A DNA stretch of 24,000 nucleotides, from the NCBI GenBank assembly GCA_029934735.1, contig JAOZLR010000001.1, forward strand, positions 4,718 to 28,717, given 5' to 3'. A program made the position numbers and the translations under genes. This DNA is from Bacteroidales bacterium (GTDB lineage Bacteria; Bacteroidota; Bacteroidia; Bacteroidales; JAADJA01). Shown here in pieces: positions 1 to 24,000 of this stretch. The notes beneath the pieces were generated by a model. It did not search any database. It saw only the letters and a program-made list of their open reading frames with translations, and was not told the origin of the DNA. Numbering within the stretch: position 1 is the first letter of the stretch; each line of letters begins with the position of its first letter.

Positions 1-1334
1 ATACTGCTTACAATATATTTATTGTGCAATTGAAAAACGGTGTCAGTGCCCGTTTCTGCTTCCACTCCCTGAGATGTAAAAATGAGTTTTGCATCATCTT
101 CCTGAGGCAATTCAGTCTCCTGCCTGTTTTGTGTGAATTCTTCATCGCCATATAGCTTTTGCCAGTTGCGTGTATCAGGTTTTTGGTGGTGCTGAAACGA
201 TGGTTTTTCTCCATGCTGAGTTTCAACATCAAAGGGATTGTAATTTTCGTCAACCTTAACTGTTGGCTGATTTACCTCTACGCTCCTTGGAAGAGGTGTT
301 ATATCAATACCTTTCTCTATGTCAAAGTCAATGGAAGGGGTAAGGTTAAATTTACCAAGTGCCTGTTTGACAGCTGAGCTCAGCATTGCATATATCACCT
401 GATTATTCTCAAAATTAACCTCCGTTTTAGTCGGATGGATATTTATGTCAATCTCGTTGGGATTTATATCAAAATAGATGAAGTAGCTGGGAAATGTATC
501 CGATGGGATAAGCTCTCTAAAAGCGTTGTCAATAGCATGATTGAGGTATGGATGTCTTATATATCTGCCATTCACAAAGAAATACTGCTCGCCTCTTGTC
601 TTTTTTGCAAACTCCGGTTTCACGATGAATCCTGTAATGTTAACCAGATCGGTTTTTTGCACAACAGGAATTAGCCTGTTATTATAAGCAGCACCAAAAA
701 GTGATGCAATCCTTTGCTTTAAAACCGACTTTGATAATTGAAAAAGCTCTCTGTTCTCATTAAAAAAAGTAAATTTTATCTCGGGATAGACAAGTGCCAC
801 CCTTTGAAACTCTTCTATAATATGTCTTAGCTCGGTTGTATTACTTTTTAGGAATTTTCGTCGTGCCGGAATGTTAAAAAAGAGGTTTTTTATTGAAAAG
901 GATGTTCCGTTTGCAGCAGAGCATGGTTCGTGGCTTTTAACTTCCGAACCTTCAATTTTAATGCAGATTCCCACTTCATCCTCAATTCTCTTAGTCTTAA
1001 GCTCTATTTGTGCGATAGCCGCAATTGAGGCAAGTGCTTCCCCGCGAAACCCTAATGTTCTGATAGTAAACAGGTCTTTGGCATCGCTGATCTTTGATGT
1101 GGCGTGCCGCTCAAAGCTCATTCTTGCATCAGTCTCCGACATTCCACACCCGTTGTCAATAACCTGAATAAGTGTCTTGCCAGCATCCTTAATTATAAGT
1201 TTAATATCATCGGCACCTGCATCAATGGCATTTTCGAGTAACTCCTTAGCGGCCGATGCAGGCCTTTGAATTACTTCTCCGGCAGCAATCTGGTTAGCAA
1301 CAGAATCAGGTAAGAGGTGTATTATATCTGACAT
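1..1334 (-). CDS. mutL: DNA mismatch repair protein MutL (first 444 codons; the 3' end lies beyond the left edge of the window)
   Basis: Absent from the ORF track because no stop codon falls inside the window. Manual minus-strand translation from the ATG at 1334-1332 gives MSDIIHLLPDSVANQIAAGEVIQRPASAAKELLENAIDAGADDIKLII..DNGCGMSETDARMSFERHATSKI..LGFRGEALASIA. These are GHKL ATPase motifs typical of MutL. The frame stays open to position 3. Confidence 0.93.
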   Translation of the reverse strand, partial: MSDIIHLLPDSVANQIAAGEVIQRPASAAKELLENAIDAGADDIKLIIKDAGKTLIQVIDNGCGMSETDARMSFERHATSKISDAKDLFTIRTLGFRGEALASIAAIAQIELKTKRIEDEVGICIKIEGSEVKSHEPCSAANGTSFSIKNLFFNIPARRKFLKSNTTELRHIIEEFQRVALVYPEIKFTFFNENRELFQLSKSVLKQRIASLFGAAYNNRLIPVVQKTDLVNITGFIVKPEFAKKTRGEQYFFVNGRYIRHPYLNHAIDNAFRELIPSDTFPSYFIYFDINPNEIDINIHPTKTEVNFENNQVIYAMLSSAVKQALGKFNLTPSIDFDIEKGIDITPLPRSVEVNQPTVKVDENYNPFDVETQHGEKPSFQHHQKPDTRNWQKLYGDEEFTQNRQETELPQEDDAKLIFTSQGVEAETGTDTVFQLHNKYIVSS

Positions 1335-1392
1335 TAATTATAATCGATGTTAAAAATTCGCAATCTATTATTGCCTGTACAAAATCCCAGGC

Positions 1393-1662
1393 TTACTTAA
1401 AAAAGAAATAGTAAAGAAATGCAATGACAATGGCGATATATATTACAACACTGACATTTGCTTTCCTCTGTCGTACAGAAGAGCCTTTTCGCACTCGCTT
1501 CCAGTCTTTTCCAACACGGCTTTTAAAATCAGGCTTTTCCCCATCCTTCGAAATACCAAGCTCTCTTTTTCTTTGTTCCCAATACTCCTTCTCCTCATCG
1601 TAATAACGAGTTTGGAAATTAAACCTCTTGGGTTTAGGAGTTTTGAAAAAGACAATTCTCAT
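1393..1662 (-). CDS. Hypothetical small basic protein with a C-terminal transmembrane anchor
   Basis: 89-aa ORF directly upstream of mutL on the same strand. It is Lys/Arg-rich and ends in the hydrophobic tail VSVVIYIAIVIAFLYYFFF. A TAccTTTG box lies on the minus strand at 1679-1686. I recognise no family. Confidence 0.5.
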   Translation of the reverse strand: MRIVFFKTPKPKRFNFQTRYYDEEKEYWEQRKRELGISKDGEKPDFKSRVGKDWKRVRKGSSVRQRKANVSVVIYIAIVIAFLYYFFFK

Positions 1663-1709
1663 TTCAATTTATTTTTTGCAAAGGTATGGAATTTGATAGA
1701 AGAAATCGC

Positions 1710-1717
1710 TATTTTTG
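1710..1717 (+). promoter_or_regulatory. Candidate Bacteroidota -7 promoter box (TATTTTTG) for the GroES-like gene
   Basis: Matches TAnnTTTG, 22 nt upstream of the ATG at 1740. It lies inside the longer ORF-track version (start 1686), which argues for the 1740 start. Confidence 0.4.
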
Positions 1718-1739
1718 TGATATTAAAAACGTAGAAGTA

Positions 1740-2123
1740 ATGGATATCTCAAAGGATAATAAACTTAGAAATTTAATTGTTGTTGGCGACAGACTTTTGA
1801 TTAAGCCTGTTTCGCATACTTCAAAGACTAAAAGCGGACTGTATCTGCCACCGGGATATAAGGAGAAAGAGGAGGTGCAGTCAGGATATGTTATAAAAGC
1901 AGGGCCGGGATTTCCAATACCATTGCCAGGTAGCGATGTTGAGGAGCCCTGGAAAAAGCCGGATGAAAACATTAAATATATTCCCTTACAAGCGAAGGAA
2001 GGCGATCTGGCAATTTTTTTACAAAAAGGTGCTGTTGAGATAATGTATGAAGGTGAGAAGTATTTTATTGTCCCTCAACATTCTGTGCTTTTGTTGGAAA
2101 GGGATGAGGATTTGTTTGGATAG
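1740..2123 (+). CDS. GroES/Cpn10-family co-chaperone-like protein
   Basis: LIVVGDRLLIKPVSHTSKTKSGLYLPPG...SGYVIKAGPG...EGDLAIF matches the Cpn10 beta-barrel pattern (mobile-loop region followed by a GxG turn). Start moved from 1686 to the ATG at 1740 because of the promoter box at 1710-1717. Confidence 0.7.
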   Translation: MDISKDNKLRNLIVVGDRLLIKPVSHTSKTKSGLYLPPGYKEKEEVQSGYVIKAGPGFPIPLPGSDVEEPWKKPDENIKYIPLQAKEGDLAIFLQKGAVEIMYEGEKYFIVPQHSVLLLERDEDLFG

Positions 2124-2193
2124 TTTGCAGGATATGTGACAGAAGAAATAACAAAAAAAAAGAAATGTTGGAATGTTGCCCTATTGGAACCAT

Positions 2194-2240
2194 CTGGCGC
2201 AAGTCTTATATGCTGGCCTTGTGGGTTGTTGACTTGTGGC
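2194..2240. repeat. REP-like imperfect hairpin, left flank of the RAYT gene
   Basis: Arms GGCGCAAGTC (2197-2205) and GACTTGTGGC (2231-2240) are near reverse complements, separated by about 25 nt. Confidence 0.6.
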
Positions 2241-2246
2241 ATTACT

Positions 2247-2798
2247 TTATTCAATAATCTCAATCTCAATTAACCCCTTTATCCCTACATAATCCCTTGC
2301 ACTGCTATAGACATAATCTTCTGGTTTTTCAACAAAGCCTGATTTTACAGGGTTGTTGTGTATATAATTTAATTTTTGTTCAATCATTTCATTATTGTAT
2401 AATTCTATCGGATGATTGTCCTGTTGCCAAAATTGATTTGATGTATTATTGGCGTTTTGTTTACCTTCCTCAGCAAAAGCCTGTAATAGCCACTTTTTTC
2501 TGCTTTCTGTGGGGTTGTTTTTAATCGCTTTGATAATTTCAACTGAGGTGAACTTTTTCAAATCCCTCATGATGTTTTCAAGATAATAACCTTCGGATGC
2601 AGATACAATCATATGTACATGGTTTGTCATTATAACATATGCTTGTGTCCGTAAACCTTTCTTGTCTCGACAATAAACAAAACTATCCAACAGTATACCC
2701 CTATACAAATTACGGGTAAAAACATCTATCCACCTAATCACAGTGTATGTTATGAAATACATGCCTTCAGGATTTCTAAATTTATATTTGCGGCTCAT
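2247..2798 (-). CDS. REP-associated tyrosine transposase (RAYT) / IS200-like Y1 HUH transposase
   Basis: 183 aa. HUH motif in TNHVHMIV; C-terminal catalytic-Tyr region LNYIHNNPVKSGFV. Size and motifs are typical of the Y1_Tnp family (PF01797). Confidence 0.88.
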   Translation of the reverse strand: MSRKYKFRNPEGMYFITYTVIRWIDVFTRNLYRGILLDSFVYCRDKKGLRTQAYVIMTNHVHMIVSASEGYYLENIMRDLKKFTSVEIIKAIKNNPTESRKKWLLQAFAEEGKQNANNTSNQFWQQDNHPIELYNNEMIEQKLNYIHNNPVKSGFVEKPEDYVYSSARDYVGIKGLIEIEIIE

Positions 2799-2802
2799 CG
2801 TA

Positions 2803-2810
2803 CAAAGATA
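2803..2810 (-). promoter_or_regulatory. Candidate -7 box (TATCTTTG on the minus strand) for the RAYT gene
   Basis: Only 4 nt separate the G of the box from the ATG at 2798. This implies a leaderless or nearly leaderless transcript. Confidence 0.35.
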
Positions 2811-2840
2811 TAAAGTATAGCTAAAATTTGTCGGTTAAAT

Positions 2841-2902
2841 TAAACCCAGGCACAAGTCCCTGCCTGCAATGCTATCCGCCAGACTTGCGCCAGTTGGGTT
2901 TA
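2841..2902. repeat. REP-like imperfect hairpin, right flank of the RAYT gene (inverted relative to the left copy)
   Basis: TAAACCCAGGCACAAGTC (2841-2858) pairs imperfectly with GACTTGCGCCAGTTGGGTTTA (2882-2902). The outer arm overlaps the stop codon of the ABC ATPase gene (2900-2902). Confidence 0.6.
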
Positions 2903-3574
2903 AACGTACCTCTCAGGAAGATACCCTCTCTCCTTTAATTCCGATGGCTCATTTATTTCTATGCAGTTTTGATCGGTCAGGAGAATTAATCTGTTGCAAA
3001 GTTTCAGTATATTACGATAGTCATGATCAGCTATCATAAAGCATTTTTCATCTTTTTTACTTTCAATGAGCTGGATAATTCGCTCTTTTAGCAACGGTTC
3101 TATCCCTGAGAATGGTTCGTCAAGAAGGATAATTCCGGCGGGATGGTTTACAATAAGCAGTATCTCGAAATAACGCGACTCCCCTGAAGATAGTTCCATT
3201 GGCTTTTTTGTGAGATACTTATTGATTAAAGTGTCCTGCCTAATCTCCTCTTTTATCCTCTGATCTTTGATAAACAGGTCAATGATCTTATTTAATGAAA
3301 TATTTGCAGGCAGGAAGCTGTTCTCTGGAAGATATGCAACGAGGTTTCCTTTTTGAAATGGTTTGTCAATAATTTCGTTGTTAATTCGCAGATGCTTGAA
3401 TTGAGGTGTAACTGTCCCGAAAATAATTTTCAACAATGTACTTTTTCCACTTCCGTTTCTTCCGAGTACACCTGTAATATCTCCAATCTTACAATTAAAA
3501 TACACATTCGACAGGATTCTCCGGTTGCCGTATGAGTGTGTCAGACTATCTATTTCGAGTGCACTATATGGCAT
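2900..3574 (-). CDS. ABC transporter ATP-binding protein
   Basis: Walker A GRNGSGKSTLL, signature-like LSSGESR, Walker B IILLDEPFSGIEP, H-loop region ADHD. 224 aa. Confidence 0.88.
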   Translation of the reverse strand: MPYSALEIDSLTHSYGNRRILSNVYFNCKIGDITGVLGRNGSGKSTLLKIIFGTVTPQFKHLRINNEIIDKPFQKGNLVAYLPENSFLPANISLNKIIDLFIKDQRIKEEIRQDTLINKYLTKKPMELSSGESRYFEILLIVNHPAGIILLDEPFSGIEPLLKERIIQLIESKKDEKCFMIADHDYRNILKLCNRLILLTDQNCIEINEPSELKERGYLPERYV

Positions 3575-3887
3575 TGATAATGATTATTAGAATATAAACA
3601 GCAAGTACAACAGGCAAATTGAACAACCAGGCAGCACTAATAAGCTGGATTTTAGTCAGACCGAGGTTATAGTAAAAATAGAAACGTTTGCGATATTTTA
3701 AAAAGTAAAAATAGATTGCAAATAAAAAACCGCCTGTAAACAAAGAAAAAGAAAAGACCGAGAAAAAACCTGTAAGAGAGCCAGTTGGTGAATTGCCTGC
3801 AAATAATCCAAAAAAACCAATAGTAACTGAAATTATCAGGTTAAATCTGAATATCTCTTTTGAAAAGTTAAGTGCAGGCCTAAACAT
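3564..3887 (-). CDS. Small polytopic membrane protein, translationally coupled to the ABC ATPase
   Basis: 107 aa with 3-4 hydrophobic segments. It overlaps the downstream ATPase start by 11 nt (3564-3574). I recognise no family. Confidence 0.6.
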   Translation of the reverse strand: MFRPALNFSKEIFRFNLIISVTIGFFGLFAGNSPTGSLTGFFSVFSFSLFTGGFLFAIYFYFLKYRKRFYFYYNLGLTKIQLISAAWLFNLPVVLAVYILIIIINAI

Positions 3888-3919
3888 TATATCTTATAAA
3901 TATGGTAAATGGCCATATT

Positions 3920-4453
3920 CTATTTTGTCGGAATTTTTGCAAGAACAGGAAATCTTTGCTGCGCAAGATAGAAAGCTCCAAAGAACAGGGTATTATAAAA
4001 AAGATCACCGAGAACACCATTATTCAGGAATGGCAATCCTGCTGTGTAACTCTCAAGTAGTCCTGCAAAATTCTGAGGATAAAACGGACTTCCAATCCAC
4101 ACTGCAAAGTTTGTAATTACAAAGAACAGAACTGATGAACTTACAGAAGCAAGCAGCAGTGACCCAATCTTAACCCGGTTTTTTAACATCATCCCGAATA
4201 CTACAATAATTGCAAAGCTAAGGTAAACAGCTATCATATATGAATGGAAACCAAGGAGCATATCCGAAATAAACAGGGCTGCCATTGGTATTAAGAAAGC
4301 CAGATATTTCTTGTTAAAATAAGTACCTCCAAAAAGGGCCATTGCAGCTATAGGAGTGAAATTAGGCCAGTGGGGGATAAGCCTGAAAGCAGCACCAGCA
4401 ATAATGACTGTAAGAATAAATAAGAATCTGGGGTTTAATGTCTTGTTGTTCAT
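3920..4453 (-). CDS. Polytopic membrane protein, DUF6580-like (putative transport protein)
   Basis: 177 aa. The N-terminal RLIPHWPNFTPIAAMALFGGTYF motif is as I recall it for the DUF6580 family. About 5 TM segments. Candidate TACTTTTG boxes lie on the minus strand at 4482-4489 and 4520-4527. Confidence 0.65.
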   Translation of the reverse strand: MNNKTLNPRFLFILTVIIAGAAFRLIPHWPNFTPIAAMALFGGTYFNKKYLAFLIPMAALFISDMLLGFHSYMIAVYLSFAIIVVFGMMLKNRVKIGSLLLASVSSSVLFFVITNFAVWIGSPFYPQNFAGLLESYTAGLPFLNNGVLGDLFYNTLFFGAFYLAQQRFPVLAKIPTK

Positions 4454-4533
4454 AGTTCAAATGTTTTAGATTTTACGATTACAAAAGTAAATAAATCATG
4501 GATATGAATATTAATAAAACAAAAGTAATTCAA

Positions 4534-5745
4534 TCAATTATCTACAAAGTTCTCATCTCCATATATTGCGAGACCGCCAAGAGCTGTTTCCCTATATAAA
4601 CTCGGGATATCTTTTCCAGTTTCTTTCATTACTTTTGTAACAACATCAAAGCTTATAAAGTGCTTGCCATCAGACAGAATAGAGAACCGTGCTGAATCGA
4701 ATGCTCTTACAGCACCATGTGCATTTCTTTCGATGCAGGGTATCTGGACCAATCCGTTTATTGGGTCGCAGGTTAAGCCGAGATGATGTTCTAACCCCAT
4801 TTCAGCAGCATATTCTATTTGAGAGGGAGAGCCACCGGCCAACTGTGTTGCTGCAGCTGCTGCCATAGCGCAAGCTGTACCAACTTCTCCCTGGCATCCA
4901 ACTTCGGCACCTGAAATTGAAGCATTTTGTTTTACAATATTCCCGATTAACCCTGCGGTTGCCATCGCCCTGATAATTTTATCATCACTAATCTCAAAAT
5001 GCTCCTGGCTTATTTTTAATACAGCAGGTAATATTCCCGACGAACCACAAGTAGGAGCAGTAACTACTTCTCCTCCTGAGGCATTCTCTTCGGATACAGC
5101 AAGTGCGTATGCAAAGATTTTACTGATAGTCCTGGAGTGATCACGCAAACCCTTTGATTTTGAATAATAGGAGGCTGCTTTCCTTTGTAGTTTTAATCCC
5201 CCGGGAATAAGTCCTTCGTTTGTAATTCCATTGGATATAGCCTTCTTCATTACTTCCCAAACTTTATGGAGGTAATCTTTTATTTCATCCCCTTCGGTTT
5301 CAAATACAAGTTCCCAAAATGTTTTACCAGTCTCTTTGTAATAGTTTAAAACATCCTGCATGTTTTTTTGGCTATAAATGTTTGTTGGTTTTGAGTTTTT
5401 GTTTTTATCGTCAACAATTTTTCCGCCTCCAACACTATACACCAACCATTTGTCGGGTTCACTGTTTTTGTCTGCTACTTCAAATTCTAAGGCGTTTGGA
5501 TGAAAATCCTTAGCTTCATCCTTTTTCCAGATAATTTCAACATTTGCAGGTTCTAATTCATTTATTATTGCAATATCAGTCAGATGTCCTTTTCCTGTTA
5601 ATGCTAAGCTGCCATATAAAGTAACTTTAAACGATTTTGCTTTCGGATGTTTGCTTTTATATTGTTGGGCAGCTCTGTCCGGACCCATTGTGTGACTACT
5701 TGAAGGGCCTCTTCCAATTCGAAATAATTCTTTTATTGATTCCAT
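4534..5745 (-). CDS. sdaA: L-serine ammonia-lyase (iron-sulfur-dependent L-serine dehydratase, single-chain form)
   Basis: N-terminus MESIKELFRIGRGPSSSHTMGP is diagnostic. Cys-containing segments TAPTCGSSG, GCQGEVGTACAMAA and LTCDPINGLVQIPCIERN match the Fe-S serine dehydratase family. Confidence 0.93.
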   Translation of the reverse strand: MESIKELFRIGRGPSSSHTMGPDRAAQQYKSKHPKAKSFKVTLYGSLALTGKGHLTDIAIINELEPANVEIIWKKDEAKDFHPNALEFEVADKNSEPDKWLVYSVGGGKIVDDKNKNSKPTNIYSQKNMQDVLNYYKETGKTFWELVFETEGDEIKDYLHKVWEVMKKAISNGITNEGLIPGGLKLQRKAASYYSKSKGLRDHSRTISKIFAYALAVSEENASGGEVVTAPTCGSSGILPAVLKISQEHFEISDDKIIRAMATAGLIGNIVKQNASISGAEVGCQGEVGTACAMAAAAATQLAGGSPSQIEYAAEMGLEHHLGLTCDPINGLVQIPCIERNAHGAVRAFDSARFSILSDGKHFISFDVVTKVMKETGKDIPSLYRETALGGLAIYGDENFVDN

Positions 5746-5758
5746 TTTCTATAACTTA

Positions 5759-6847
5759 TTATTTTAGTTTCGGGTGTATTTTTATTATATCCTGTATCAA
5801 ATATTCTATTGGCTCTCTTCTGTTTTTCGAAATTTTTCTATTGTCTGCATTGATTATAATAACCATATCCAGCTCAGGAATAATGTTTATTATCTGTCCA
5901 CCATTTCCAGGAATAAACCAAGCATTAAATCCATACTCTGTTTTTACCATCTGCCACTGGTAACAACTATAAAAAGGATGGTGAATTTCAATATATGGGC
6001 TAAATATTTCTTCTATCCATTTTTCTGATACAATTTCATTTTCGTTCCATTTTCCCTTATTCAAATGTAAAAGTCCATATTTGGCAATGTCTCTTGATTT
6101 TAGTTTTAATCCGCCACCACTATCATAAACTCCATTTTTTTCAAACCAGTCATATTCTTTTATGCCAAGAGGTTTAAAAAGATATTCTTCTGCAAATTCT
6201 GCAATATTTTTACCAGTTGTCTTTTTTATAATTTCGCTTAAAATAATATTGTTAGGTCCACTATACACATATTTTGTTCCGGGAGCTGTATCCATAGGTA
6301 GCATTATTGCTGATTTTAACCAGTCATTTGTTAAATCCATTTGTCTGCCCATATTATTTGGGTCAGTAAGAGGTAAAGATTGCTCATCCCATTGAAAACC
6401 CGAGGTCATCGTCAACAAATCTTTAATGGTTATTTTATTTTTCAGTGTGTCTTTTTTTAGATTTTTATATTCAGGGAAGAAATCTAACATTTTTTGGTCA
6501 ACGCTTTTAATATACCCTTGTTCTATTGCAACACCAATCAATAAGGAATTAAAACTTTTTGTATTAGATGCCAAAAAATGCAGTCTGTCCTTTTTCCATC
6601 CATTGTAATATTGCTCTATCACCAAGTCGTTATTTTCAATCACCAGTAAACTATGTATATTTCCATATTTGCCATTACAAATGTCTTTATTTAATTTGCT
6701 GAATCTGACTGTATCCAACTTGTTCTCTTCAAGTGTAGAAACATTCAGTCCATCATTAATATCATTTGGTTTCTGATAGGAACAATTATCTTTTGTATTG
6801 CAACCTACTAAACCTAAAATAATCAAAATGCTTATAATATTTTTCAT
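5759..6847 (-). CDS. Serine hydrolase / beta-lactamase-family lipoprotein
   Basis: SxxK motif in LASNTKSF. The ORF-track start (6943) overlaps the upstream gene. The internal Met at 6847 gives a lipoprotein signal peptide, MKNIISILIILGLVGC, and sits 1 nt after the upstream stop codon. Confidence 0.85.
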   Translation of the reverse strand: MKNIISILIILGLVGCNTKDNCSYQKPNDINDGLNVSTLEENKLDTVRFSKLNKDICNGKYGNIHSLLVIENNDLVIEQYYNGWKKDRLHFLASNTKSFNSLLIGVAIEQGYIKSVDQKMLDFFPEYKNLKKDTLKNKITIKDLLTMTSGFQWDEQSLPLTDPNNMGRQMDLTNDWLKSAIMLPMDTAPGTKYVYSGPNNIILSEIIKKTTGKNIAEFAEEYLFKPLGIKEYDWFEKNGVYDSGGGLKLKSRDIAKYGLLHLNKGKWNENEIVSEKWIEEIFSPYIEIHHPFYSCYQWQMVKTEYGFNAWFIPGNGGQIINIIPELDMVIIINADNRKISKNRREPIEYLIQDIIKIHPKLK

Positions 6848-10707: not shown

Positions 10708-12828
<2,121 letters not shown>

Positions 12829-19543: not shown

Positions 19544-20134
19544 TTACTCAACAAACTCAAATGCTTCCACAAGGGTTTTTAGCGAACATATCCGTTTTTC
19601 CCAATCCCCTGATTTGTAAACAAGTGTTTGCAGAAGATATATCTCATTTACATCCGGCTTTTTAATGTAAACCACATTGCTGACAATGAACACATCATCT
19701 TCTTTCATCTCAAAGGCGAGCCAGTAGCTTTTTTGATCGTTAACTTCTATTATACCCGTTTCAAGAAGATTGAATACTGCGGACTTCTTCATTGATTTGA
19801 TTTCATTTCTGAAATATGTTTCAAGTGAATCGGTTGTTTTATAGCCCGAAACCGAAAGAGACATCAGCTTTGAATTATCATTGTCAATATCCAGGGCATT
19901 AGTGCCGAATATTCCATAAATAGTATCGGAATAGACCTCCTGAATATCCCAGCTATATGGCATTGTAATCATAAATTTATTCCCCGGATCTCCAATGGTT
20001 ATCAGGTCGCCAAAATCAGAATCGTCACTGCAATTATTATAACTTTCAGATACCGGAATACCCTCAAATGTTTTTCTTGAATGGCATCCAGAAACTGTTA
20101 TGACAATAATTGTAAAAAATAAGAGTCTCTTCAT
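19544..20134 (-). CDS. Hypothetical lipoprotein
   Basis: Signal peptide with lipobox MKRLLFFTIIVITVSGC. 196 aa. I recognise no family. Confidence 0.7.
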   Translation of the reverse strand: MKRLLFFTIIVITVSGCHSRKTFEGIPVSESYNNCSDDSDFGDLITIGDPGNKFMITMPYSWDIQEVYSDTIYGIFGTNALDIDNDNSKLMSLSVSGYKTTDSLETYFRNEIKSMKKSAVFNLLETGIIEVNDQKSYWLAFEMKEDDVFIVSNVVYIKKPDVNEIYLLQTLVYKSGDWEKRICSLKTLVEAFEFVE

Positions 20135-20299: not shown

Positions 20300-20722
20300 A
20301 TGTCTGACGTACATGACAAAATAACTAGGAGTTATAATATGTCAATGATAAAGGGTAAAGATACAAAACCTGAAATTATTGTAAGGAAATTTTTGTTTCA
20401 GAATGGATTCAGATACAGAATCAATTTTACAAAATTGCCAGGAAAACCTGACATTGTCTTGCCAAAGTACAAAACCGTTATTTTTATTAACGGGTGTTTT
20501 TGGCATGGACATAAAAATTGCAACTATTTTGTAGTTCCAAAAACCAGAACAAAATGGTGGATAGAAAAAATAAACAAAACCAAAGAACGTGATGTTTTGA
20601 TAATGAATGAATTGAAAAAACTCGGATGGAGAATATTTGTTATATGGGAATGTGAATTAAAAAGGGTAAAAAGAGATAAAATTTTTGAAAAATTATTACT
20701 ATTTTTGAAAAAATTAAACTGA
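20300..20722 (+). CDS. vsr: Very short patch repair endonuclease (T:G mismatch-specific)
   Basis: TRSYNMSMIKGKDTKPE...GKPDIVLPKYKTVIFINGCFWHGHKNC...WW..KI..TKERD are the Vsr family motifs. 140 aa. Its stop overlaps the dcm start (TGATG). Confidence 0.92.
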   Translation: MSDVHDKITRSYNMSMIKGKDTKPEIIVRKFLFQNGFRYRINFTKLPGKPDIVLPKYKTVIFINGCFWHGHKNCNYFVVPKTRTKWWIEKINKTKERDVLIMNELKKLGWRIFVIWECELKRVKRDKIFEKLLLFLKKLN

Positions 20723-21897
20723 TGAATTTTATCGATTTGTTTTCAGGTGGTGGAGGCTTGTCTGAAGGCTTTGTCCGACAGGGATTTAAGCCTGTTGCTC
20801 ACGTTGAAACAGACAGGGCATCATGCAATACTATATTAACCAGAATCGCATATTATTATTTATCAGAAACCGGTAATAATGAGGTATATATTCAATATCT
20901 GAAGAGGCAAATAACTCGAAATGAATTGTATGAATATCTTCCTGACAGTCTAAAAATGTCCATAATTAATAAACCTATTGGAAAAGAAAGTAATAGGGAG
21001 ATATTCAGACGGATAAATGATGTGAAAGGGACTAAAAAAATTGATTTGATTATCGGAGGACCTCCTTGTCAGGCGTACTCTCTTGTTGGCAGAGCAAGAG
21101 ATGCATATAGTATGAAGTATGATGAAAGAAATTACCTTTATGTTCAGTATGCTGAATTCCTTAAAAAGTTTGAACCTGAATTCTTTATTTTTGAAAATGT
21201 TTCAGGTATGCTTTCTGCTAGAACCTCTGGCGGGGAAAAATACCTTGAAAAAATGATCAGGTTGTTTCGTGAGGTTGGATATGAGACTGAGTATGAATTA
21301 TTAAATGCTAAAGATTTTGGGGTTTTACAAAATAGAAAAAGAGTTATTCTAATTGGTAAAAAAGGAACTAAAAAAGGTTTTTATCCAAATTTCAAAAAGA
21401 AAGACTCAAAAGTTAATGTCGAAGAAATATTTAAAGGATTACCTAAATTAAAAGCAGGAGAAGGTAATTTTTTTGAAACAAAGTACACAAAAGATACTTC
21501 CGAATACCTAAAAGAAATTAAAGTTCAAAACGGTTTAGATTTTACAACACAACACATTGCAAGACCACATAATGAGCAAGATAAAGAAATATATCGAATT
21601 GCAATAAATAAATGGAATGAAAATGGAGAACGTTTAAATTATAACGATTTACCTGATAGATTAAAATCCCATAAAAATAGAAATTCTTTTACTGACAGAT
21701 TTAAAGTTGTTGCAGAAGAATTACCTGCTTGTCATACTGTTGTAGCACATATAGCAAAGGATGGACATTATTATATCCACCCAGATATTAAACAAAATCG
21801 TTCAATAACACCGAGAGAAGCAGCTAGATTACAATCATTTCCTGATGATTATTTCTTTGAAGGTCAAAATGACAAGCCTAGTAGAACTGCTGCATAA
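20722..21897 (+). CDS. dcm: DNA (cytosine-5)-methyltransferase, apparently truncated at the C-terminus (motifs I-IX present, motif X absent); possibly a pseudogene
   Basis: Motif I DLFSGGGGLSEGF, IV GGPPCQAYS, VI FENVSGM, VIII QNRKRV, IX RSITPREAARLQSFPDDYFF. The ORF stops at ...SRTAA-TAA, and no GNAVP-like motif X follows in any forward frame. Confidence 0.85.
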   Translation: MNFIDLFSGGGGLSEGFVRQGFKPVAHVETDRASCNTILTRIAYYYLSETGNNEVYIQYLKRQITRNELYEYLPDSLKMSIINKPIGKESNREIFRRINDVKGTKKIDLIIGGPPCQAYSLVGRARDAYSMKYDERNYLYVQYAEFLKKFEPEFFIFENVSGMLSARTSGGEKYLEKMIRLFREVGYETEYELLNAKDFGVLQNRKRVILIGKKGTKKGFYPNFKKKDSKVNVEEIFKGLPKLKAGEGNFFETKYTKDTSEYLKEIKVQNGLDFTTQHIARPHNEQDKEIYRIAINKWNENGERLNYNDLPDRLKSHKNRNSFTDRFKVVAEELPACHTVVAHIAKDGHYYIHPDIKQNRSITPREAARLQSFPDDYFFEGQNDKPSRTAA

Positions 21898-21908
21898 AAA
21901 ATAACATT

Positions 21909-22238
21909 ATGAATACTATTACTAAAACAGAGATTGACGCTTATAAAGAACTAAAAAAACAATATACAAATATTGTAAACACTAGCATTCTTGAAAATTG
22001 TAATAAAATAGTTCAAATTGGTGCATATACTGCTGAAATTGACAAGAATAATATTGTTACTCTTTCTCGAAATAAGTTCCCTTCTCAGTTTACTGAAAAA
22101 TCAGCAAATGATATTGTAAATATGAACTGGACTTCATCCAATAATAAAAAGGCAAATATTGAGATTTATAATATTAAAGATTGGTATAGAGGAAAAATAG
22201 AAGCATTAAATTTCATTATTAAAAACTATAATAATTAA
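21909..22238 (+). CDS. Hypothetical 109-aa protein (orf109), translationally coupled to the HNH nuclease gene
   Basis: Uninterrupted ORF in a dense operon. It starts 11 nt after the dcm stop and ends 1 nt before the HNH start. No TM segment, signal peptide or motif that I recognise. Confidence 0.55.
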   Translation: MNTITKTEIDAYKELKKQYTNIVNTSILENCNKIVQIGAYTAEIDKNNIVTLSRNKFPSQFTEKSANDIVNMNWTSSNNKKANIEIYNIKDWYRGKIEALNFIIKNYNN

Positions 22239-22239
22239 T

Positions 22240-23010
22240 ATGCAGAGACGTAATTGGACAAAAGATGAACTAATTCTTGCTTTTTCTTTATACCTTAAAC
22301 TTCCTTTTGGAAAAATGCATAGAAATAATCCAGATATTATTTATTTATCTAAAATAATAAATAGAACACCTAGTGCTGTCGCAATGCGTCTATCTAATTT
22401 TGCTAGTTTAGATCCATTTCATCAACAAAGAGGAGTAAAAGGTTTAACAGGAGGAATATCTATTTGTAAACCAATTTGGGATGAATTCATAGGTAATAGA
22501 GAGGATTTATTATATAAAAGTGAAAATATTTTAGCAAAGAAAGAAAATACAGATATAGAACTAAAATATTCGGATATTTTAAAAGATACTCAAAATTTAA
22601 AAGGTGAAATAAAAGAGCGTATTGTAAAGACAAGAGTTAATCAATCTGTTTTCAGAAAAATTATTTTATCTACATATACTCAAAAATGTGCAATAAGTGG
22701 AATTGATATTCCTCAATTATTAGTAGCAAGTCATATTATCCCGTGGTCTAAAAGCGAAAAAGAAAGATTAAATCCTTCAAATGGTATATGTTTATCATCA
22801 TTATATGACAAAGCATTTGATATTGGCTTAATAGGAATAAAAAAGGATTATACAGTGATATTATCCAATAAAATAAAGGATAAGTCAAAAATGGATTATT
22901 ATAATACTTATTTCAAGAATATAGAAAATCAAAAAATATTATTGCCAGAAAGGTATCAGCCTGATTTGAATTTTTTAGAATATCATTTAGATACCATTTT
23001 TCAAAAGTAA
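22240..23010 (+). CDS. HNH-family nuclease of the predicted-restriction-endonuclease type (COG3183 / HNH_2-like) with an N-terminal SANT/Myb-like helical domain
   Basis: RVNQSVFRKIILSTYTQKCAISGIDIPQLLVASHIIPWS...NPSNGICLSSLYDKAFDIGLIGI matches the HNH_2 beta-beta-alpha-Me pattern (catalytic His in ASHI; Asn in NG). The N-terminus is NWTKDELILAFSLY...RTPSAVAMRLSNFASLDP. Confidence 0.8.
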   Translation: MQRRNWTKDELILAFSLYLKLPFGKMHRNNPDIIYLSKIINRTPSAVAMRLSNFASLDPFHQQRGVKGLTGGISICKPIWDEFIGNREDLLYKSENILAKKENTDIELKYSDILKDTQNLKGEIKERIVKTRVNQSVFRKIILSTYTQKCAISGIDIPQLLVASHIIPWSKSEKERLNPSNGICLSSLYDKAFDIGLIGIKKDYTVILSNKIKDKSKMDYYNTYFKNIENQKILLPERYQPDLNFLEYHLDTIFQK

Positions 23011-23049
23011 ATTGTCAGAAAAACAAAAGGACGTTGGGACAGGCGAGGA

Positions 23050-24000
23050 ATGGTTGTTGGAAATGTTCAATCAGGTAAAACAGCAAATTATACAGGACTT
23101 ATTAATAAAGCAACTGATGCAGGATATAAATTAATAATTGTAATTGCTGGAATTCACAATAGTTTAAGGGCTCAAACTCAAAGTAGAATAGATGAGGGCT
23201 TTATTGGTAGAGATAGTTCTGATTTCATTTTAAGACAACGAAATATTAAAACTGGAGTCGGACATATTAAAGCTGAAACAGAAATATATTCTTTTACTTC
23301 TTCTGATGCAAAAGGTGACTTCAATAGAAATATAGCAACTAGAATTAATGTTCCTATTGGTGGACAAAGTCCTACCGTTTTAGTTATTAAAAAGAATAAA
23401 AGTATATTAGAAAATTTAATTTTATGGTTACATCAGTTTGCCATTGACAATGGAAATGGTGAGAATAAAATATTTGATGTTCCTCTATTGTTAATTGATG
23501 ATGAAGCGGATAACGCTTCTGTAAACTCAGGGACTGAATTAGATGTTAAAACCATTAACCGATTAATAAGAACTCTATTAAACTTATTTAATCAAAATAC
23601 TTTTATAGGATATACGGCAACCCCATACGCTAATATTTTTATTCCATCTTCCTGGAGTAAAAATCTGGAAACAATGGTAAAAGATATCAAACTTAAAGTG
23701 GGTGAAGACCTATTCCCTCGGGACTTTATCGTAAATATCCCTCCTCCCTCCAATTATATTGGAGCTGTTCAGGTTTTTGGATTTGAAAATGAAGAAACTG
23801 GTGAAGAACACGAAGGTTTAGATATTATAAGATTAGCCGAAGACCAAGAACCATTATTCCCGAAAAAAATAAATAAATATAATAAAGATGAATTACCTGA
23901 AGATGTTCCTTCTTCTTTGAAAACAGCAATTAAATCGTTTATCTTAACTTGTGCAATCAGGCGATTAAGAGGACAGGAAACGAAGCATAATTCTATGCTT
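23050..24000 (+). CDS. Z1-domain family SF2 helicase-like P-loop ATPase (partial; runs off the right edge; the N-terminal region appears to be missing)
   Basis: Manual translation in the same frame as the HNH ORF, open from 23011 to 24000: IVRKTKGRWDRRGMVVGNVQSGKTANYTGLINKATDAGYKLIIVIAGIHNSLRAQTQSRIDEGF...LLLIDDEADNAS...GYTATPYANIF...ILTCAIRRLRGQETKHNSML. Walker A is at 23059-23082 and DDEAD at 23497-23511. The first ATG is at 23050. Confidence 0.8.
   Translation, partial: MVVGNVQSGKTANYTGLINKATDAGYKLIIVIAGIHNSLRAQTQSRIDEGFIGRDSSDFILRQRNIKTGVGHIKAETEIYSFTSSDAKGDFNRNIATRINVPIGGQSPTVLVIKKNKSILENLILWLHQFAIDNGNGENKIFDVPLLLIDDEADNASVNSGTELDVKTINRLIRTLLNLFNQNTFIGYTATPYANIFIPSSWSKNLETMVKDIKLKVGEDLFPRDFIVNIPPPSNYIGAVQVFGFENEETGEEHEGLDIIRLAEDQEPLFPKKINKYNKDELPEDVPSSLKTAIKSFILTCAIRRLRGQETKHNSML

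Follow-up and report, generated by a model that had tools for sequence, protein, structure and literature searches.

The 24,000-nucleotide (nt) window analyzed here, from contig JAOZLR010000001.1 of the Bacteroidales bacterium assembly GCA_029934735.1, carries a C5 cytosine methyltransferase gene that ends shortly after conserved motif IX and is followed directly by a small open reading frame (ORF), orf109, and an HNH nuclease gene. The methylase belongs to an MZA operon, a five-gene "mza" anti-phage system with the order Dcm–MzaB–MzaC–MzaD–MzaE, in which MzaB is a GHKL ATPase, MzaD is of the PD-(D/E)XK type and MzaE is of the AIPR type. Comparison with intact operons showed that the orf109–HNH cassette replaced part of this (Vsr-)Dcm-MzaB-MzaC-MzaD-MzaE operon. 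Base positions in the following are window coordinates; comparison loci carry L numbers and methylase homologs P numbers, with L001 as the intact reference. The features of the locus are these:

20300–20722, + strand: vsr, an intact very-short-patch repair endonuclease gene (140 aa; Pfam Vsr, E = 2.9e-33)
20722–21897, + strand: C5 cytosine methyltransferase, the methylase of the MZA operon (391 aa), with motifs I–IX kept and motif X missing
21270–21405, no strand: mosaic boundary in the methylase gene, where sliding identity to L001 jumps from 60–71% to 94–99%
21799–21894, + strand: motif IX and the native 10-codon tail QNDKPSRTAA, 94% identical over 32 aa to a motif IX/X query derived from the L001 methylase
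21895–21897, + strand: TAA stop at the left junction, with a T that opens the native Phe codon and an AA from the inserted DNA
21896–23018, + strand: inserted cassette of 1123 bp, where the ancestral operon had 1918 bp (blastn and base-level alignment with L001)
21909–22238, + strand: orf109, a small protein of a rare family found at the left end of nuclease cassettes in wrecked MZA loci
22240–23010, + strand: HNH_2 nuclease (256 aa; Pfam HNH_2, E = 1.9e-12), with an N-terminal helical domain and a C-terminal HNH domain
23019–24000, + strand: mzaC remnant, 92.7% identical in nucleotides and 96% in amino acids to L001 mzaC from residue 122
23050–23052, + strand: earliest ATG in frame with the mzaC remnant, three codons upstream of the Walker A motif GNVQSGKT, and the start used by the gene caller in L006

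The stop codon of vsr shares one base with the ATG of the methylase gene. Methylase motifs I (FxGxG), IV (PCQ), VI (ENV), VIII (QxRxR) and IX (RExxRxQxFP) follow one another in the canonical order, and the corresponding sequences DLFSGGGGLS, GGPPCQAYS, FENVSG, QNRKRV and TPREAARLQSFPD all fall on invariant alignment columns. The protein has the C-terminus RSITPREAARLQSFPDDYFFEGQNDKPSRTAA, followed by TAA at 21895–21897. Motif X (QxGNAVP) is absent, the protein ending one residue short of FKQIGNAVPP. Consistent with this, the match to Pfam DNA_methylase (PF00145, E = 1e-51) covers profile positions 56–300 of 324 and leaves 301–324 unmatched, and the match to the NCBIfam dcm model TIGR00675 ends at position 306 of 329. 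Among the best 120 of 8000 methylase homologs, which include close homologs of 415–430 aa with 62–81% identity, 119 are 412–442 aa long, and the truncated form occurs in a single cluster. When 13 close homologs were aligned, 12 continued beyond the last residue of the window protein with FKQIGNAVPPLMAEEIAxEIKKLL, comprising motif X and a C-terminal helix; the remaining one, P0081, is likewise truncated. A first-pass annotation made from the sequence had described a methylase with intact motifs in canonical order that stops about ten codons past motif IX without motif X, and the alignment and the two profile ends agree with it on both counts.

That annotation had also found no GNAVP-like string downstream. 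Neither tblastn with the missing 24 aa nor a six-frame regular-expression search detected such a string, or an orphan motif IX/X fragment, anywhere in the 24-kb window, and a family hidden Markov model and Pfam searches of the large ORFs detected no second C5 methyltransferase there. These searches rule out a displaced motif X or a second methylase within the window. A fusion of the methylase with orf109 by frameshifting or read-through was considered, since the downstream ORF sits in the −1 frame relative to the methylase in the window, L018 and L020, and was rejected: the stop is not preceded by a slippery heptamer, and the gene that follows it varies among loci. An automatic call of a 391-aa "DNA cytosine methyltransferase" at this locus should not be read as evidence that the DNA is methylated.

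By blastn, window positions 20686–21895 are collinear with 7965–9174 of L001, and 23019–24000 with 11093–12074. Base-level alignment to L001 and L002 showed that the left break follows the T at 21895, and alignment to L001 put the right one at 23018/23019. Alignment to full-length homologs, suggested in the first-pass annotation as a way to find the exact break, gave the same left position. Measured against L001, the window has lost 24 codons from the end of the methylase gene, mzaB in its entirety and mzaC as far as codon 121. It is the junction itself that produces the TAA stop. Identity to the intact locus is 94–99% up to base 21895, disappears there and resumes at 23019, which bears out the earlier proposals that the break is not a simple nonsense or frameshift mutation and that the native 3′ end was exchanged for unrelated orf109/HNH DNA.

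MzaB is encoded directly behind the methylase in L001–L005. In the window this slot is filled by orf109 and the HNH gene, and no MzaB match was found. The cassette is nearly all coding, with orf109 starting 13 nt past the left junction and the HNH gene ending 8 nt short of the right one. The mzaC reading frame runs on directly after the HNH stop, and the remnant matches positions 126–459 of the NCBIfam MzaC profile (E = 6.5e-85). The window itself ends within mzaC, so that the positions of mzaD and mzaE lie beyond it. No terminator-like site was found on the + strand between the methylase gene, orf109, the HNH gene and the mzaC remnant; the sole + strand site lies within vsr (20475–20493). Compared with the intact MZA locus of L001, the methylase (81% identical, 95% in its C-terminal half) and mzaC are clearly of the same family, but in lacking mzaB, the 121 N-terminal mzaC codons and methylase motif X the window holds a disrupted, not a working, locus.

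Two simpler origins were considered and are disfavoured. A repeat scan at 21896 and 23018 detected neither inverted or direct terminal repeats nor a duplicated target site, and the cassette consists of orf109 and the HNH gene only, with no transposase; it is therefore not a transposon or insertion sequence. The spacer TAAAAAATAACATTATG after the window stop is similar to ATTAAAAAAATATTATG of L001, which could point to an internal deletion of motif X with the native 3′ end retained. The sequence is low-complexity A/T, however, the reading frames disagree and a foreign gene follows, so that such a deletion seems unlikely.

The position of the left junction recurs in unrelated bacteria. In the window, L018 and L020 the methylase stops directly after the ..AA that precedes F-K/R-Q-I-G-N-A-V-P, with AAAAA following every time. 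These three methylases are only 53–65% identical, and each has a different downstream gene:

Window: methylase ends in ..PSRTAA and stop, then orf109 and the HNH gene
L018: methylase ends in ..FYFEENLCAA and stop, then orf79 (39% identical to orf83 of L010) and a PDC-S41-like gene
L020: methylase ends in ..FFESSRTAA and stop, then directly the HNH gene (58% identical)

The methylase remnant of L014 ends at the same place and that of L007 is off by a 3-nt gap. Between the window and L020 the SRTAA codons differ only synonymously. A pattern search with the junction DNA yielded one true extra locus (L020) and one chance match (L019). L007 and L008 represent a distinct lineage with the same cassette: the HNH protein is 90% and the orf109 homolog 80% identical to those of the window, and the methylase is truncated in the same region. 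Their right junction equals that of the window to the base, and it is followed by 19 mzaC codons and a C-terminal mzaE scrap. A right junction shared in this way indicates that the window and L007 cassettes descend from a common ancestor. For the left junction, it is possible that a single old junction was moved from allele to allele by recombination up to the border of heterology, or else that insertion was repeatedly targeted at the conserved motif X DNA. The right junction shared with L007 and the similar A-rich spacers favour the single old junction, for which the 10-codon tail is awkward, being native in the window and drifted in L007 and L014.

The HNH protein matches the PADLOC model HNH PDLC04132 (E = 1.8e-93) and has more than 5000 homologs, mostly 255–259 aa long. 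Its catalytic columns are invariant across 30 homologs, in keeping with an HNH (beta-beta-alpha-Me) nuclease of the HNH_2 type. Residues 122–213 match VcaM4I (PDB 6yex, E = 1.4e-11), and the best fold matches, though weak, are VcaM4I and TagI, both modification-dependent endonucleases. The N-terminal 115 residues are all-helical in the predicted structure (predicted local distance difference test, pLDDT, 80–94) and gave only weak homeodomain-like fold matches. Between the window and L007, the ratio of non-synonymous to synonymous substitution rates (dN/dS) for the HNH gene is 0.08, indicating strong purifying selection. Together with the Pfam matches and the conserved length of the homologs, this supports the earlier description of both Vsr and the HNH nuclease as intact.

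In 8 of the 9 distinct genomic contexts, the HNH gene is intact and has either a broken C5 methylase or none next to it. No C5 methylase adjoins the HNH homologs of L009, L010–L012, L021–L026 and L028, and those of L007, L020 and L027 stand beside a truncated one. The individual arrangements are as follows:

L009: HNH homolog alone amid metabolic genes
L010–L012: Vsr, orf83 and HNH, with no methylase
L020: HNH directly after a truncated methylase
L021–L026: HNH directly after a 26-codon Vsr remnant; the defence island around it has just one methylase, part of a separate MjaI-type restriction–modification (R-M) pair
L027: Neisseria gonorrhoeae, between pheS and pheT: Vsr, a 133-aa methylase stump, orf113 and HNH
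L028: HNH homolog on a Hymenobacter plasmid, with no methylase nearby

The Vsr of L010–L012, which adjoins the HNH homolog, is 69% identical to that of the window. In L021 the N-terminal Vsr remnant (4912–4989) is 73% identical to the window Vsr and lies immediately upstream of the solitary HNH gene. The latter arrangement suggests that the ancestral position of the HNH family is behind vsr. L027 corresponds to NZ_CP119142.1 369350–380099, where an intact 249-aa HNH_2 ORF (5007–5756) and a 113-aa ORF follow Vsr and the methylase stump; the stretch carries no annotation, and PLSDB lists the record, a chromosome of 2.17 Mb, among plasmids.

No hits to orf109 were found in Pfam, PADLOC or NCBIfam, and scans of JGI metagenomes and GTDB genomes gave no relatives. 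The family comprises 7 clusters among 5.8 billion proteins. Every locus recovered with an orf109 homolog is a wrecked MZA locus in which the homolog is paired with an HNH or a SauUSI-type enzyme, and a dN/dS of 0.1–0.2 indicates purifying selection. The AlphaFold model (pLDDT 90, predicted template modelling score 0.79) shows an alpha/beta domain with the order helix, three strands, helix, strand, helix, and has no significant match among solved PDB structures. L014 and L015 contain a 42-codon methylase remnant, orf110, a 1044-aa PLD–helicase–DUF3427 protein and an mzaC fragment (residues 647–834), and L016 and L017 contain orf110, the 1044-aa protein and a 26-codon mzaE scrap. The 1044-aa protein has the architecture of SauUSI and matches the PADLOC "Type IV methyl-directed restriction enzyme" model with E = 1.3e-230. 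Thus orf109 is a small partner gene that occurs with either of two nucleases. An invariant QIGAYTAE, which recalls QIGNAVP, raised the idea that orf109 supplies motif X to the methylase in trans. This was rejected, as the sequence has no Asn and orf109 is kept beside SauUSI-like genes; it persists in loci without any methylase and is therefore not a complementing subunit.

A second family of small ORFs, orf79 and orf83 (39% identical; L018 2265–2504 and L010 5750–6001), occupies the orf109 slot, with a truncated methylase or Vsr on one side and a PDC-S41-like or HNH gene of the nuclease type on the other. Neither ORF had a database match. In-frame mzaC or mzaE scraps of lineage-specific extent lie downstream of the cassettes in L007 (1786–2043), L014 (8365–8937), L016 (13487–13564) and L020 (3061–3826), with RhuM, PemK and SIR2/pAgo-like genes beyond them. 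The varied scraps indicate stepwise erosion of MZA loci in defence islands.

Identity to L001 is uneven along the window:

20686–21270: 60–71%
21406–21895: 94–99%
23019–23468: 97–99%
Beyond 23468: 83–92%

The cassette is thus flanked by 490 nt of high identity on the left and 450 nt on the right. No homolog among the 120 exceeds 68.5% identity to the N-terminal half of the methylase, yet P0001 reaches 95% in the C-terminal half; in homolog pairs, C-terminal halves at least 90% identical normally go with N-terminal halves at least 72% identical. The methylases of the window and L007 differ by a synonymous divergence (dS) of 1.2, the cassette genes by only about 0.5, from which it follows that the cassette is younger than the methylase alleles that carry it; methylase identity between the two loci climbs toward the junction. 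Each truncated methylase is nearest to a different full-length one, that of L007 being 97% identical to P0007. Relative to L001, the C-terminal part of the methylase has 18 synonymous and 6 non-synonymous changes, and the mzaC remnant 12 and none. At 163 highly conserved columns the window methylase has 7 private substitutions, all conservative (homologs: mean 1.4, maximum 7), and its dN/dS is 0.07, which led us to reject pseudogene-type decay. This pattern fits homologous recombination among MZA loci in which the cassette was transferred along with a few hundred flanking bases, and refreshment of the flanks from intact alleles fits as well. Either would explain why the truncated genes have not decayed.

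The other large ORFs of the window are ordinary Bacteroidota-like chromosomal genes, encoding LigA, KdsA, MatE, a serine dehydratase and a protein with a type IX secretion system (T9SS) tail. Between kdsA and the vsr operon, on the − strand at 19544–20134, is a 196-aa ORF with a lipoprotein-like N-terminus (…TVSGC) that matched no Pfam family.

The DNA comparison shows that a resident (Vsr-)Dcm-MZA operon was struck by a replacement in which the stretch from the Phe codon opening motif X through mzaC codon 121 was exchanged, and the explanation that we favour starts from there. Motif X of C5 methylases folds into the large, AdoMet (S-adenosylmethionine)-binding domain; circular permutation within this domain gives inactive enzymes, and truncated fragments alone are inactive. 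Since the helix that completes this domain is lost, the 391-aa methylase is most likely catalytically dead, killed by the loss of motif X, and the MZA system would be disabled with it, MzaB and the N-terminus of MzaC being gone. The incoming orf109–HNH pair would be a restriction module complete in itself, with no need of a methylase for protection. Judging from the solitary HNH contexts, the truncated methylases beside other homologs, the likeness to VcaM4I and TagI, the coupling of orf109 to Type IV enzymes, and PcaRCII, a Type IV enzyme discussed below, the nuclease is most likely methylase-independent and probably methylation-dependent, cutting DNA modified with 5-methylcytosine (m5C). If so, loss of Dcm would be a precondition for keeping the cassette and not a hazard. 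With the methylase most likely dead and the nuclease independent of it, no problem of self-restriction should arise. Of the three ways of host protection left open by the first-pass annotation, a truncated methylase that still works is unlikely, and an HNH enzyme that is modification-dependent or methylase-independent is favoured over the others; as to another methylase covering the site, the window holds none. The methylase-based MZA system and the cassette would then be epigenetically opposite alternatives at one locus, and homologous recombination in the adjoining methylase and mzaC sequences would carry the cassette from one MZA locus to another, which would explain both the mosaic identity profile and the same junction on different methylase alleles. 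The locus has the look of a defence system displaced by its epigenetic opposite. We regard this explanation as a whole, from the replacement through the dead methylase and MZA system and the m5C-cutting module to its spread by recombination, as moderately probable.

Several observations weigh against parts of it, and four other explanations were considered. The window is probably on a metagenome-assembled contig, and one of the records that share its junctions, L006, contains a scaffold N gap and begins with 142 nt (1–142) that match neither the window nor the rest of L006, probably a chimeric contig end; a join of two unrelated regions during assembly could thus be suspected. Outside its gap, L006 (an NCBI contig) is identical to window 21194–23332, and L013 (a Logan assembly contig) is 100% identical to 21339–22451; both may come from the same environment as the window. 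As these records from other assemblies are identical across the junction, the diverged L007/L008 lineage shares the arrangement, and both flanks derive from one operon in the right order and orientation, a chimera is scarcely credible. Repeated site-specific insertion into the motif-X-coding DNA, through homing-like HNH cleavage or some other targeted mechanism, would account for one junction codon in divergent methylases followed by orf109–HNH, orf79 with a PDC-S41-like gene, HNH alone, or orf110 with a SauUSI-like gene, and for the native tail in the window; deletion of the motif X DNA would also abolish a homing target. Against this stand the missing terminal repeats and target-site duplication, the use of the same junction by cassettes with non-HNH nucleases, the thousands of HNH family members in unrelated contexts and the right junction shared with L007. 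The A-rich spacer after the stop, alike across loci and resembling the native methylase 3′ end, may moreover be inherited and not recreated, and we consider targeted insertion distinctly unlikely.

The truncated methylase might instead be a maintained, functional protein with a selected domain boundary. It could retain weak methylase activity, or it could bind specific DNA sequences independently of AdoMet and in that way serve the nuclease or control the operon. The common stop position in the window, L018 and L020, the purely synonymous differences in SRTAA, the open ORFs, the intact motifs I–IX and the low dN/dS with few, conservative private substitutions speak for this; the absence of decay in the truncated genes, which would fit retained function, fits a very recent event or flank refreshment as well. 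The low dN/dS can stem from recent full-length ancestors or gene conversion, because the nearest full-length relatives differ from one truncated methylase to another. The drifted tails of L007 and L014 and the rarity of truncated forms also argue against a maintained protein. Nuclease cassettes persist beside a 42-codon remnant (L014), a 133-aa stump (L027) or no methylase (L016, L010, L021, L009) and hence do not require it, so that we find a functional truncated methylase unlikely. More to be reckoned with, if still a minority possibility, is that the HNH enzyme is a conventional methylation-sensitive nuclease, or the nuclease arm of a multi-gene R-M-like system. The host would then survive because another methylase of that specificity is encoded at a different place in the genome, or because the nuclease is silent or lacks partners that it needs. 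The protein also matches the PADLOC "HNH, Type II restriction enzyme" model (E = 1.9e-40). Against methylation dependence in particular, no PUA/SRA/EVE (SBD, wH) sensor was recognised in it, and its N-terminal domain has no PDB sequence hit. The family lies repeatedly downstream of vsr (window, L010, L021, L027), as if derived from a Vsr-M-R system. In L029, moreover, a 45%-identical HNH gene shares one operon with a full-length methylase of the window family, so that at least one relative can co-exist with an intact Dcm. This operon (IMGVR_UViG_3300029288_007108, 1–6450) also encodes a 710-aa protein with two GHKL ATPase domains and unknown proteins of 543 and 233 aa, and may represent an MZA-like system whose effector is the HNH protein. 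In the window, the intact protective methylase of a classical Vsr-M-R (Type II R-M) system is missing, since motif X is absent and no second methylase was found there; across the contexts of this family, methylases are mostly broken or absent beside an intact HNH gene, whereas R-M systems usually decay in the opposite order, and the slot behind orf109 is filled elsewhere by a methyl-directed Type IV enzyme.

Truncation of a gene in a defence locus by cassette replacement is a known kind of event. New are the identity of the wrecked system as MZA, the module of orf109 and a nuclease, the tie of an HNH family to dead Vsr/Dcm loci from Bacteroidota to Neisseria, and the fixed junction codon. The seeming contradiction between the broken methylase and the intact nuclease at its side is likely resolved, the MZA system and the cassette probably representing alternative, epigenetically opposed defences that compete for one locus. 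If the HNH nuclease does depend on m5C, its more than 5000 homologs, spread from Bacteroidota to Neisseria, would constitute a large, widespread Type IV group, the inactive NgoAXIII methylase remnant would be explained, and the locus would be a case of natural turnover of defence systems in which the newcomer disables its predecessor. The recurrent one-codon junction offers a handle on the exchange of defence cassettes. A bolder idea, to which we give little weight, is that orf109 or orf79/83 with an HNH_2, SauUSI-like or PDC-S41-like nuclease form "methylase-killing" modules that enter Vsr-Dcm/MZA loci at the codon before motif X and inactivate the m5C methylase as an m5C-dependent nuclease arrives, with the junction fixed by targeted or strongly constrained integration.

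Several known systems bear comparison with this locus. The DpnI and DpnII systems of Streptococcus pneumoniae, from work by Lacks et al. in 1986, are said to be alternative, epigenetically opposite restriction cassettes that occupy one slot and are swapped cleanly between shared flanks. By analogy, the window would pair a methylating system with a putatively methylation-dependent nuclease, mutually exclusive at one slot and exchangeable through flanking homology. In contrast to DpnI/DpnII, the swap in the window cuts coding sequence and leaves truncated genes on both sides. SauUSI, which restricts DNA with m5C or 5-hydroxymethylcytosine, represents a type composed of a PLD nuclease, a helicase and DUF3427; such enzymes take the HNH position behind the orf109 homologs of L014–L017, whereas the window has none. 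M.AquI, M.EcoHK31I and M.BssHII are naturally split or permuted C5 methylases with motifs IX/X on a separate polypeptide or out of order, unlike the window, which has no separate motif X piece.

A closer parallel in gene order is NgoAXIII of N. gonorrhoeae, for which Vsr followed by a methylase remnant reported to be inactive has been described (Sanchez-Buso et al. 2019, PMC6789123, citing Kwiatek et al.); the passages of that paper on NgoAXIII deal with Vsr and the methylase remnant only, and the term HNH does not occur in its text. The order Vsr, truncated C5 methylase, small ORF and HNH_2 (39% identity over the full length) is the same as in the window, but the NgoAXIII methylase is cut far earlier, near motif IV (133 aa), and there are no MZA genes. 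PcaRCII of Pectobacterium carotovorum has a three-helix DNA-binding domain and a VcaM4I/TagI-like HNH domain (Birkholz et al. 2022, PMC8989522). With no cognate methylase of its own, it restricts Dcm-type-methylated DNA, which brings it into lethal conflict with the methylase of that type in PcaRCI (PMC8989522). The window HNH protein resembles it in having a helical N-terminal and an HNH C-terminal domain, a comparison made by described architecture only. In Pectobacterium the conflict is resolved by promoter methylation that silences PcaRCII (PMC8989522), whereas in the window it is the methylase gene itself that has been destroyed.

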